Assembly: GCA_017467085.1 (NCBI GenBank)
Contig: JAFTSW010000008.1
Span: 1,174-65,173, forward strand
Length of the DNA: 64,000 nt
Source: Clostridia bacterium
GTDB lineage: Bacteria; Bacillota; Clostridia; Oscillospirales; CAG-272
Reading direction: 5' to 3'
The stretch's first letter is position 1. Each line of letters opens with the position of its first letter. Of this stretch, positions 62,973 through 63,860 are shown piece after piece. The position numbers and the translations under genes are program-made. The notes under the pieces were generated by a model that had not been told where the DNA came from, searched no databases, and saw only the letters and a list, made by a program, of their open reading frames with translations.

Positions 62973-63860
62973 ATGACTATGCTGTATATTTTACTTGCCG
63001 ATGGCTTTGAGGAAATCGAGGCGTTAACGCCCTTGGATATGCTCAGAAGAGCAGGCTGCACCGTCAAAACGGTGTCTATCACCGCGCACCGCGAGGTGCT
63101 CGGCGCCCACGGAATTCCCGTGCTTGCCGACTTGACGGCAAAGGATGCGCTGGAGGAAATTGACTTGTTGGTGTTGCCCGGCGGTATGCCCGGAAGCAAG
63201 AATCTTGACGAGTCGCCCTTCGTTTCCGCCCTTATCGAAAGAACCCTGGAAAGGGGCGGCCGTCTTGCCGCCATCTGCGCCGCGCCTATGGTGCTTGGTC
63301 ACAGAGGGCTCTTGGAAGGGAAGACTGCCGTTTGTTACCCCGGCTTTGAAACGGAGCTTGAAGGTGCTATTGTATCAGGCGCCCCTGTTGTGACAGACGG
63401 CAATATCACCACCGCCGCAGGTATGGGCGTTGCTCTCCTTTTCGGTGCTGAGTTAGTCCGTCTGACGGTATCCGAAAAGGCGGCAAGAGATTTGCTTTTC
63501 GGCTGCTCGGGTATGCAAGCGCGCGTCCCCACCTTTGTCGAGGGCGAGTTCCTTGGTAGCGAGATGGCACGTGTAGCAGAGTTCTTGCGCTCTCACTTCG
63601 ATAGCGACAGTGAGGTCTTGGACGCCGCCAAGAGCGAGGAGGCGCTGCTCGACCGTGCCGTGGCGATTGCCCTCGAGCGCGGCAAGGTTTCCACCTCGCT
63701 TTTGCAAAGACGGCTTCCTGTCGGCTTTGGCAAGGCAGCGCGGCTGATTGACCGTATGTATGAAATGGGTATCGTCGGCGCACTCAACGGGCAAGGCCCC
63801 CGTGAAGTCTTAATTTCCGCCGAGGATTATGAGAAAATGCGCTCGAACAAGAGCGAATAA
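62973..63860 (+). CDS. fusion protein: DJ-1/PfpI (ThiJ) domain + FtsK-gamma-like winged helix
   Basis: The N-terminal ~185 aa have [11 protein letters not shown]...LPGG...AAICAAP (nucleophile-elbow Cys). The C-terminal ~95 aa ([11 protein letters not shown]...[43 protein letters not shown]) parallel the FtsK C-terminus encoded just upstream. The exact start is uncertain (62967/62973/62979). Confidence 0.8.
   Translation: [295 protein letters not shown]

Follow-up and report, generated by a model that had tools for sequence, protein, structure and literature searches.

Why does the gene that follows ftsK in a Clostridia bacterium carry an FtsK gamma domain on an enzyme of the DJ-1 family? We studied this gene in a stretch of 64,000 nucleotides (the window), near whose end it lies. 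The cellular role of DJ-1 and YajL is argued over, the proposals being glyoxalase, hydrolase of cyclic 3-phosphoglyceric anhydride (cPGA), protein or DNA deglycase, and chaperone. Whether DJ-1 deglycates DNA or protein is itself disputed (PMC9539984, PMC10634309). Both domains of the window protein are already known; our literature search for DJ-1 or PfpI with FtsK or the FtsK gamma domain found no description of their combination.

The gene and its neighbourhood

The product of the window gene is a YajL/DJ-1-type cysteine hydrolase followed by a disordered linker and an FtsK gamma winged helix (Table 1). An earlier note, made from the DNA letters alone, had proposed these two domains and had placed the gene directly downstream of ftsK. 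Both assignments hold, with Pfam matches to DJ-1_PfpI and FtsK_gamma above their cut-offs, and the upstream gene does encode a full FtsK. The start codon is the ATG at 62973, on which the upstream GAGG and the orthologue P0001 (98% identical, beginning MTMLY) agree; the GTG at 62967 is a possible alternative. The same note took a split ORF in related genomes as the mark of a duplication remnant. We saw no such split: the ORF is intact in an independent sample (locus L090, orthologue 98% identical) and in 72 related clusters. Pfam finds neither FtsK_SpoIIIE nor FtsK_alpha in the window protein; all that is left of the beta domain is a stretch of about 25 residues that formed its end. Having neither motor nor alpha domain, it is not a translocase.

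Table 1. Features of the ftsK locus in the window.
Feature	Position	Strand	Basis and remarks
Two half-size TauE genes, divergent from ftsK	58919..59896	-	Pfam TauE N- and C-terminal halves
ftsK, full-length DNA translocase (973 aa)	59924..62845	+	Pfam; donor of the copied tail
ftsK 3' segment homologous to the fusion tail (aa 823-973)	62390..62845	+	BLASTP, blastn
Two strong hairpins (11-bp and 13-bp stems)	62847..62925	+	RNA fold; neither followed by a T-run
GAGG ribosome-binding site	62962..62965	+	Read from the sequence; 7 nt before the ATG
DJ-1-gamma fusion gene (295 aa)	62973..63860	+	Stop TAA at 63858-63860
DJ-1/YajL-type domain (aa 1-180)	62973..63512	+	Pfam, NCBIfam, PDB sequence matches, AF2, Foldseek
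Linker (aa 181-219), mostly disordered	63513..63629	+	AF2; alignment to FtsK 837-862
FtsK gamma winged helix (aa 220-290)	63630..63842	+	Pfam, PDB sequence matches, AF2
Start of a membrane-protein gene, cut by the window end	63881..64000	+	Sequence; conserved neighbour

The FtsK of the window consists of an N-terminal membrane region, a linker, the alpha domain, the beta motor and the gamma domain (aa 899-959). Its FtsK_alpha, FtsK_SpoIIIE and FtsK_gamma matches pass the Pfam cut-offs, and FtsK_4TM is matched weakly (17.6 bits, cut-off 23.1). The gap of 127 nt between ftsK and the fusion gene holds both hairpins (region 62843-62985 folds with -54.5 kcal/mol, z = -4.8 relative to shuffled sequences), and a consensus scan of it found neither promoter nor terminator. 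The two genes are probably in one operon. The TauE pair forms the left border of a conserved neighbourhood and also occurs in L081-L085 and L087. On the other side, the gene after the fusion in the L090 contig matches the Pfam Rce1-like family (CPBP family); this neighbour is also found in L081-L083 and, after one intervening gene, in L087.

The DJ-1 domain

The N-terminal part belongs to the enzymes of the DJ-1 family. Pfam DJ-1_PfpI (PF01965) matches aa 5-163 (E 1.4e-38, 132.8 bits, cut-off 26.6), and the NCBIfam model TIGR01383, "DJ-1 family glyoxalase III", scores 148.7 bits, above its equivalog cut-off of 131.25. The PDB sequence search with this domain returned DJ-1 and YajL. AF2 predicts the flavodoxin-like fold of DJ-1 with pLDDT above 95 over aa 1-170, and Foldseek matches the model to 4k2h (E 2e-20, target-normalised TM-score 0.92) and to human DJ-1 (0.87-0.90).

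The catalytic residues of DJ-1 comprise the elbow cysteine and the alanine that follows it, the Gly-Gly oxyanion hole, Glu15 and Glu18, and Arg28 from the other protomer (PMC12135873). By motif alignment to human DJ-1, residues E13, E16, R26, G70-G71, C102 and A103 of the fusion correspond to E15, E18, R28, G74-G75, C106 and A107. The nucleophile Cys102, in the elbow AAICAAP, is encoded at 63276-63278. None of these residues varies among 73 fused and 48 stand-alone relatives, and on their conservation we consider the DJ-1 part to be catalytically intact. Two differences touch other positions. P158 of DJ-1 lines the cPGA pocket and is required for cPGA hydrolysis (PMC12135873); its equivalent is Met across the clade (GPG to GMG), M151 being at least 90% conserved. 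The equivalent of H126 is Tyr in the fusion protein. The domain is 62-76% identical to stand-alone enzymes. Relative to the 98%-identical orthologue it has one non-synonymous and six synonymous changes (dN/dS about 0.06), which points to strong purifying selection.

The linker and the gamma domain

The linker is poorly ordered in the AF2 model: pLDDT is under 50 at aa 183-193 and 208-219 and near 50 in a helix at 196-209. Within it survive remains of the strand and helix that close the FtsK beta domain (VEGEFL...RVAEFLRSH). The gamma domain that follows is matched by Pfam FtsK_gamma (PF09397) at aa 221-281 (E 1e-22, 80 bits, cut-off 30.6) and by the PDB sequences of 2j5o (E 3.9e-9), 2ve8 (4.2e-9), 5dcf (2.7e-7) and also 2j5p. 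AF2 predicts helices at 218-236, 241-247 and 252-264 and a strand at 277-279 in the wing region (pLDDT 90-97). The 50 matches listed by Foldseek for the whole model are DJ-1 only, so the gamma assignment rests on the sequence searches and the AF2 secondary structure.

Which functional residues does this gamma keep? In Escherichia coli, the residues of gamma that contact XerD or KOPS are Q1288, R1289, R1292, I1293, G1294 and N1296, and the turn between helices 2 and 3 (Q1288, R1289, G1294) serves KOPS and XerD alike (PMC5052618). R1300, E1303 and E1306 read KOPS (PMC2680272). Among 76 fusion gammas, the equivalents of Q1288, R1289 and G1294 are 96-100% conserved, and positions D1303 and E1306 are as conserved as in FtsK. 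Basic residues fare worse: relative to FtsK gammas, the K1281 equivalent falls from 87% to 53%, K/R1300 from 94% to 61%, and the wing K1318 from 97% to 38%, the window fusion having Gly at this last position. These losses may have reduced the DNA affinity of the fusion gammas. The window gamma has the Q, R, G and D1303 equivalents, with Pro at 1292, Arg at 1300 and Tyr at 1306, the latter in the recognition helix, where the window FtsK has Gln. The FtsK of the clade itself already has S at 1292 and G at 1296. Every family-invariant residue of gamma except two is retained in the window protein. Since DNA and XerD bind the same surface of gamma, this conservation is equally compatible with either target. 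We scanned the window for skewed 7-mers and 8-mers and for known KOPS and SRS words and found no convincing polar motif; 64 kb is too little for such a scan, and coding-strand bias confounds it.

A family of fusions next to ftsK

The window protein is the smallest member of a family that joins DJ-1 to FtsK modules in a clade of gut and rumen Clostridia. We found 72 protein clusters (90% identity) with DJ-1 and gamma: 63 have gamma after DJ-1, four have two gammas after it, and five have gamma in front. At least 11 further clusters (50% identity) join DJ-1 to the whole soluble FtsK motor (alpha-beta-gamma). These motor-bearing relatives (P0121-P0133) are translocases, unlike the window protein. 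We reject the reading of the whole family as a non-functional duplication remnant, given how many clusters there are, how old copies are kept under purifying selection and how some residues never vary.

In all 13 loci that we fetched with a fusion gene (L081-L093), the fusion directly follows a full membrane ftsK on the same strand, seen in L089-L091 as a position after an FtsK gamma tail only, as the contig is cut there. In L087, tmk lies between the two genes. An unfused DJ-1 gene occupies the same position after ftsK in about 30 of 80 GTDB loci, none of which has a gamma after DJ-1. This order, ftsK and then an unfused DJ-1 gene, is the ancestral state. Apparent full-length fusions in GTDB (residues 3-289) proved to be composites of the upstream FtsK gamma and a stand-alone DJ-1. 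Fused and unfused forms are interleaved in the DJ-1 tree. Other duplications were observed at this locus, namely in L024, in tandem DJ-DJ proteins and in FtsK-like proteins with three gammas.

Origin of the gamma domain

The tail of the fusion (aa 173-295) pairs with FtsK aa 823-973 (BLASTP E 2e-33), lacking about 28 linker residues; the ftsK segment concerned covers the last strand and helix of the beta domain, the linker and gamma. In DNA, the two tails are 77% identical by mean column; the gamma core of 67 codons reaches 79.6%, and a blastn alignment of 222 nt gives 78.8%. These values are close to the four fifths that had been judged by eye. The beginning of the FtsK-derived segment at aa 173 (DLLFGCSGM against DMLFLCPGM) is uncertain, as the closest fusions show a similar C-terminal helix of DJ-1 (AEKLLGD, ADGMLSA). 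This stretch may derive from DJ-1 or be junction microhomology. Homology to FtsK is firm from about aa 187-190 (VEGEFL...RVAEFLR).

The fusion gammas usually resemble the FtsK gamma of their own genome most closely. For eight of 11 of them the best FtsK match is their own, with identities of, for example, 100, 85, 72 and 66%, the best foreign FtsK gamma giving 51-79%. The resemblance extends to synonymous sites: the synonymous distance (dS) between the fusion gamma and the own FtsK gamma is 0.28 in the window and 0.34 in L081, whereas between these two genomes it is 0.69 for the FtsK orthologues, 1.04 for the fusion gammas and 2.2 for the DJ-1 domains. In L087, a tract of 392 nt with 99.5% identity extends beyond the stop codon, a sign of recent copying. 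The junctions vary by genome (FtsK aa 823, 873, 887 and about 917), and the tail of P0002 is closer to the window FtsK than to the window fusion and keeps linker sequence that the latter lacks. The likeness to the own FtsK, synonymous sites included, together with the differing junctions indicates repeated copying or gene conversion of gamma from ftsK.

The claim that gamma was copied from the neighbouring ftsK is thus borne out by a within-genome dS of 0.28, below the 0.69-1.04 between genomes. The single local tandem duplication that had been put forward is not: there are at least four architectures, with differing junctions and apparent re-copying or conversion. A one-step tandem duplication, from a point within ftsK to the 3' end of the DJ-1 gene, would fit the variable junctions, but the second DJ-1 gene that it predicts downstream was never seen. 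The similarity to the own FtsK could also arise from mechanical conversion between neighbouring repeats, with no selection for a matched target.

Selection on the gamma domain

Old fusion gammas have dN/dS of 0.19-0.27 where dS is 1.1-1.8. Synonymous sites have reached saturation in L084 and L086 and, in L089, at the first gamma. The ratios argue that the older copies are under purifying selection. The window gamma gives another picture. Its dN/dS relative to the FtsK paralogue is 0.82, the identity between the two by codon position is nearly flat (0.72, 0.82 and 0.75), and it differs from the 98%-identical orthologue by five non-synonymous and two synonymous changes. By these comparisons it evolves almost neutrally, at about 0.8, under weak constraint. 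Function is therefore less certain in the window lineage than in the whole family, and the window gamma may have diverged from, or partly lost, the family role.

Possible roles of the fusion

We tentatively favour, at somewhat less than an even chance, the reading that gamma serves as an address label bringing an active DJ-1 dimer to the targets of FtsK. Fusions would be born by local duplication, and gamma would be re-copied or gene-converted from ftsK now and then, so that it stays like the resident FtsK gamma. A DJ-1 dimer with two gammas on flexible tethers could then reach whatever the resident gamma recognises; the candidates are the polar G-rich DNA motifs of the species (KOPS/SRS type) or a XerD-type recombinase at dif. 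There, the enzyme would clear methylglyoxal or cPGA, or early adducts, near the chromosome and the FtsK machinery. Such targeting is feasible, as the isolated gamma works in trans in vitro (PMC3130261). The earlier note had suggested that the fusion could deliver a repair or deglycase activity to the chromosome terminus or septum, or could compete with FtsK for KOPS or XerD.

The roles of the two domains may also be reversed, which we regard as unlikely: gamma would be the effector and DJ-1 a sensor or scaffold, and the protein would regulate FtsK in trans or compete with it. With its free gammas placed on loading sites of the KOPS type or on XerD, it would either activate dimer resolution without translocation or damp the action of FtsK. 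A link to redox or electrophile stress would come from the reactive Cys102 or from the dimer state of DJ-1. Isolated gamma does activate XerCD-dif without the motor in vitro (PMC3130261), a 9-residue gamma peptide on XerC suffices to stimulate XerCD-dif recombination in vivo (PMC5052618), and the core Q, R and G of that peptide are invariant in the fusion gammas. An XerD activator other than FtsK exists in XafT (PMC9226527). The XerD-contact residues are better conserved in the fusions than the basic residues 1281, 1300 and 1318 (E. coli numbering), and a gamma that tracks its own FtsK gamma fits a common protein partner. Yet in E. coli the products of Xer recombination are topologically complex when it is activated at the wrong time (PMC3130261), and a free activator might do harm. 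A simple decoy does not readily account for relatives that have a complete motor, and the invariant catalytic residues, the dN/dS of about 0.06 and the 62-76% identity to stand-alone enzymes argue that enzyme activity matters, not a scaffold alone. For the window lineage itself, it is conceivable, if rather improbable, that gamma is a tolerated by-product of duplication drifting to loss, the protein being simply a DJ-1 enzyme. This would account for the near-neutral dN/dS of the window gamma in two independent comparisons and its flat codon-position identity, and for a useless relic of the beta domain kept in a disordered linker. It would also suit the interleaved DJ-1 tree, which implies frequent gain and loss, and a locus prone to duplication (L024, DJ-DJ tandems, triple-gamma FtsK-like proteins). 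Nevertheless, the ORF is intact in two samples despite a dS of about 0.28 since copying; by a rough estimate, neutral drift over 75 codons would have produced about 2-3 stop codons. All but two of the family-invariant residues of gamma are kept, its pLDDT is above 90, and at the family level old copies have dN/dS of about 0.2 and the fusion persists in at least 72 clusters and four architectures.

DJ-1-fold domains joined to HTH domains are a known design of regulators, and a transcription factor, with a DJ-1-fold sensor and a gamma reading an operator, has to be weighed as well. The gamma domain is a sequence-specific winged helix, the window gamma has changed Q to Y relative to its own FtsK at the 1306 equivalent of the recognition helix, and the NCBIfam FtrA model (NF006902) is weakly matched (E 3.5e-8). 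But the DJ-1 part keeps all its catalytic residues and passes the curated cut-off that marks true YajL/DJ-1 enzymes; gamma has been reset to the FtsK sequence again and again, contrary to what one would expect of a factor with an operator of its own; and the motor-containing relatives do not fit. We regard this explanation as very improbable.

Comparison with known systems

The window gamma shares with the FtsK/SpoIIIE gamma (PF09397; 2J5O, 2J5P, 2VE8/9, 5DCF) an 80-bit family membership, the three helices and wing strand, the turn between helices 2 and 3 (Q-R...G) and D1303. It sits on an enzyme and not on a hexameric motor. An FtsK ring carries six gammas; the fusions have one or two per chain, hence two or four per presumed dimer, and show little conservation of the wing lysine and other basic residues. 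YajL and DJ-1 (TIGR01383) have the same catalytic equivalents and a fold matched with a target-normalised TM-score of about 0.9. Unlike them, the fusion has a C-terminal linker and a predicted DNA- or XerD-binding domain, ftsK as a neighbour, Met at P158 and Tyr at H126. The longer relatives (P0122-P0130) may be compared with the SftA-type soluble FtsK paralogues of Firmicutes, being membrane-less alpha-beta-gamma translocases additional to the membrane FtsK; unlike that type, they bear an N-terminal DJ-1, and the window protein has no motor.

Gamma domains have been captured elsewhere. In the Bacillus phages Sam46 and Sam112, the small terminase carries an FtsK_gamma at its N-terminus, and phages also have gamma-like genes that stand alone (PMC8190038). 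As in the fusion, a host FtsK-type gamma was grafted onto an unrelated protein, presumably for DNA targeting. Unlike in the phages, the domain was here taken from the gene next door and joined to a metabolic or protective enzyme of the cell, and the copying is apparently recurrent. XafT of TLC-phi, an FtsK-independent activator of XerD (PMC9226527), and the isolated gamma in vitro (PMC3130261) illustrate XerD activation by a factor outside a translocase; XafT is not a gamma homologue, and a Xer-related activity of the DJ-1-gamma protein is hypothetical. DJ-1-like/AraC regulators (FtrA, NF006902) also combine a DJ-1 fold with a DNA-binding domain, but theirs are a sensor-type DJ-1 fold and an AraC HTH, whereas the fusion has an enzyme-type DJ-1 and an FtsK gamma.

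Implications

The reading of gamma as an address label can be taken further, though we find the broader claim doubtful: in this clade of Clostridia, DJ-1/YajL would belong physically to the machinery with which FtsK segregates the chromosome. That fusions to gamma and to the motor arose repeatedly would then be "Rosetta-stone" evidence for an action of DJ-1 on the chromosome or the translocase/Xer complex, for example by keeping G-rich polar motifs or DNA-bound proteins free of carbonyl or acyl damage, and gene conversion from ftsK would hold the address domain matched to the resident reader. If true, this would be the first natural evidence of a chromosome-directed role for a close DJ-1 homologue.

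For the evolution of proteins, the locus offers a clean case of domain capture from an adjacent gene, apparently followed by concerted evolution of donor and copy. For the study of FtsK and Xer, it offers a cellular protein with a free gamma, encoded beside ftsK, which could load at the DNA motifs of FtsK or activate XerD away from the motor. For the study of DJ-1, a close homologue tied again and again, in several architectures, to the FtsK gamma or indeed to the complete motor suggests where the enzyme acts and provides a bacterial system in which a chromosome-linked role may be tested directly.

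Domains of the fusion protein

The gene directly downstream of ftsK encodes a member of the DJ-1/YajL family with a true FtsK gamma domain and no translocase. Its start is most plausibly the ATG listed in the table, since a GAGG lies 7 nt 5' of it and the 98%-identical orthologue (P0001) opens with the same MTMLY. The HMM search recovered both domains proposed in the earlier note, DJ-1_PfpI at aa 5-163 (E = 1.4e-38) and FtsK_gamma at aa 221-281 (E = 1e-22), each well over its Pfam cut-off. The protein also passes the NCBIfam equivalog TIGR01383, "DJ-1 family glyoxalase III" (148.7 bits, cut-off 131.25). 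In an AlphaFold2 model built from an alignment of 64 family members (mean pLDDT 88.6), pLDDT exceeds 95 across the DJ-1 domain (aa 1-180), and the gamma domain (220-294) is confidently predicted as three helices with a short strand at the wing. Two stretches between them are predicted to be disordered (183-193 and 208-219, pLDDT <50), separated by a weakly predicted helix (196-209), which together with the preceding strand (VEGEFL...RVAEFLRSH) is what remains of the final strand and helix of FtsK's motor. In Foldseek the model matched structures of the DJ-1 family, at target-normalised TM-scores of up to 0.92, and a sequence search of the PDB with the tail retrieved FtsK gamma (2J5O, 2VE8, 2J5P) and the XerD-gamma complex 5DCF.

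DJ-1/YajL catalysis needs E15, E18, R28, G74, G75, C106 and A107 (PMC12135873). Their equivalents in the fusion, mapped by conserved motifs because the numbering of the human DJ-1 and YajL sequences used was off by one, are E13, E16, R26, G70, G71, C102 and A103. None of the seven varies among 73 fused and 48 stand-alone relatives, and the invariance of R26, equivalent to the trans-protomer R28, argues for a DJ-1 dimer. Throughout this clade, fused and stand-alone, Met replaces Pro158 (GMG for GPG), a residue of DJ-1/YajL reported to be essential for cPGA hydrolysis (PMC12135873), and the equivalent of His126 is Tyr.

Features of the window and of related loci (window coordinates unless a locus is named)
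Feature	Coordinates	Strand	Description
ftsK	59924-62845	+	complete: N-terminal membrane region (FtsK_4TM sub-threshold), alpha, motor, gamma (Pfam)
Fusion ORF	ATG 62973 to TAA 63858-63860	+	295 aa
Met for Pro158	63423-63425	+	fusion aa 151
Two strong hairpins	62847-62925		11-bp and 13-bp stems, z = -4.8
Small third stem	62952-62966		able to occlude the GAGG ribosome-binding site
Split TauE/SafE exporter	58919-59302 and 59315-59896	-	halves match N-terminal and C-terminal parts of the Pfam model
tRNA gene	58692-58763	+	Rfam
T-box leader	36191-36422	+	Rfam, 127 bits
DJ-1 with complete membrane-less FtsK module	L091 247-2391; L092 7001-9553; L093 7001-9166		proteins P0121-P0130, P0133
Repeated tract, ftsK 3' end vs DJ-1-gamma 3' end	L087 6505-6896 vs 4600-4990 (approximate)		392 nt, 99.5% identical
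Second truncated ftsK-like gene	L024 1-2882		part motor and gamma

A family of fusions at the ftsK locus

On sequence grounds, the joining of DJ-1 to FtsK gamma is a family and not an accident. A survey of its distribution, suggested earlier, found both domains in 72 of the best 120 clusters (90% identity) matched by the fusion protein, arranged as DJ-gamma (63), DJ-gamma-gamma (4) or gamma-DJ (5). When 1.84 billion representatives were searched with a profile, at least 11 further clusters (50% identity) emerged with DJ-1 N-terminal to a whole membrane-less FtsK module; SftA of Firmicutes is a soluble FtsK paralogue. These proteins have alpha, motor and one or two gammas, and in one case two motors (DJ-alpha-motor-gamma, DJ-gamma-alpha-motor-gamma, DJ-alpha-motor-gamma-gamma, DJ-gamma-motor and others). 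The genes with coordinates lie directly 3' of a normal membrane ftsK, and in L092 the motor is 63% identical to that of the same genome's FtsK. One family member is labelled only "DJ-1/PfpI family protein" at NCBI. Close to this family in sequence, the searches also returned FtsK-like proteins with three tandem gammas (P0155, P0160) and proteins built of DJ-1 domains in tandem, two or four per chain (P0136, P0139 and others).

Thirteen fusion-encoding loci were fetched (L081-L093, of which L081 and L082 share one protein). In all ten loci reaching far enough upstream, the fusion gene follows a co-oriented, full-length membrane ftsK; L089-L091 are on cut contigs, yet their fusion genes still come after an FtsK gamma tail. 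The gap is 3-375 nt, and a thymidylate kinase gene intervenes in L087. A conserved TauE-TauE or CysS lies to the left on the opposite strand; to the right follow an optional Rce1-like gene, a hypothetical protein (214-228 aa), an amidase (opposite strand) and a TilS-like gene. The window has the same gene order, and its split TauE/SafE pair is also kept in L081-L085 and L087. Around 30 of 80 GTDB loci have an unfused DJ-1 3' of ftsK, so the pair is ancestral and the fusions derived. Duplication at this locus also produced the truncated ftsK-like gene of L024, which separates ftsK from a stand-alone DJ-1; the motor it encodes is 46% identical to that of the window FtsK, vs 72% for the first copy.

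In the window, the gap hairpins lack a T-run and are therefore not a classical terminator. The motif GCTTTAACTCT occurs twice there, making alternative pairing possible. Rfam matched nothing over the whole window besides the T-box leader and the tRNA gene.

Origin of the gamma domains

The window FtsK, whose FtsK_4TM match in Pfam is weak and sub-threshold, aligns at aa 823-973 with aa 173-295 of the fusion (E = 2e-33), where about 28 linker residues are deleted. The tail DNA is 77-80% identical, in line with the four fifths first estimated by eye. Derivation from the adjacent ftsK, also proposed then, is borne out: in a 67-residue core, 8 of 11 fusion gammas have their own genome's FtsK as best FtsK match (L087 100%, L081 85%, L084 72%, L086 66% identity; best foreign FtsK or fusion gamma 51-79%). 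Over 67 codons, dS between FtsK and fusion gammas is 0.28 within the window and 0.34 within L081; between the two loci it is 0.69 for FtsK orthologues, 1.04 for fusion gammas and 2.2 for DJ-1 domains. The L087 tract starts right after the DJ-1 domain and ends 38 nt past the stop, so that the duplication also takes in the opening codons of the genes that come next, thymidylate kinase behind ftsK and 5-formyltetrahydrofolate cyclo-ligase behind the fusion. Most of the genomes are metagenome-assembled. An assembly artefact is conceivable for this repeat, although the two mismatches between its copies speak for both being real. Junctions vary by genome (FtsK aa 823, 873, 887, ~917), and the tail of a close relative (P0002) is closer to the window FtsK than to the window fusion and retains the SEK.NKEKR linker lost from the latter. 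In L083 the two gammas differ from each other by a dS of 0.56 and from FtsK by ~1.5, indicating internal duplication, and fused and unfused forms interleave in a neighbour-joining tree of the DJ-1 domain (~170 residues). Taken together, these comparisons mean that fusion gammas were probably captured repeatedly and/or gene-converted from ftsK. The single local tandem duplication envisaged in the earlier note thus gives way to probable repeated copying or gene conversion, in a family of 72 clusters plus the motor-fused forms.

Conservation and possible roles

In E. coli FtsK, the turn that joins helices 2 and 3 (Q1288, R1289, R1292, I1293, G1294, N1296) touches XerD and DNA (PMC5052618), and R1300, E1303 and E1306 help KOPS reading and are dispensable for Xer activation (PMC2680272). 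When 76 gammas from fusions were compared with 41 from FtsK of the same clade, Q, R, G, A1298, D1303, G1309, P1319 and R1320 proved to be kept at 90-100%, and E1306 equally in both, pointing to a conserved fold and dual-use surface. Basic residues are rarer in the fusions (1281-equivalent 87 to 53%, 1300-equivalent 94 to 61%, wing 1318-equivalent 97 to 38%), whose DNA affinity may be relaxed. Fusion and own FtsK gammas have dN/dS of 0.19-0.27 at dS 1.1-1.8 in L083, L085, L088 and the second gamma of L089, indicating copies long kept under purifying selection; for L084, L086 and the first gamma of L089, full saturation of synonymous sites precludes an estimate.

That the window gamma is a drifting by-product is rather unlikely, and would concern this lineage only. 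Its dN/dS against FtsK is 0.82, with identity nearly flat over codon positions. Relative to the orthologue's locus (L090), non-synonymous changes in it outnumber synonymous ones 5 to 2 (DJ-1 domain 1 to 6; FtsK tail no amino-acid change), and with L081 FtsK as outgroup almost all gamma change falls on the fusion branch. This pattern may reflect relaxation or divergence. Even so, the ORF is unbroken in two samples, and just two of the family-invariant gamma residues differ: Tyr stands at the 1306-equivalent and Gly in place of the wing lysine. A transcription-factor-like protein seems very improbable, even if a DJ-1 fold with an AraC HTH is a known regulator design. A protein centred on gamma that regulates FtsK/Xer or competes with it is feasible, as isolated gamma activates XerCD-dif (PMC3130261), and has a precedent in XafT (PMC9226527); we consider it unlikely, if less so. 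Captured gamma domains are also known in phage small terminases (PMC8190038).

The fusion tethers an intact enzyme to an intact gamma, is encoded with ftsK, and its gamma stays similar to that of the resident FtsK. We tentatively favour, at a little under an even chance, a role of gamma as an address that would bring a DJ-1 dimer to the targets of FtsK, be these polar DNA motifs or dif-bound XerD. The motor-fused relatives suggest the same DJ-1/FtsK association, which could proceed by co-assembly or co-translocation. Our literature search found no paper pairing DJ-1 or PfpI with FtsK or FtsK gamma; the combination of an enzyme-type DJ-1 with FtsK modules, a fixed locus and concerted evolution of donor and copy is not described there. 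The family gives the disputed function of DJ-1 a testable chromosomal context.
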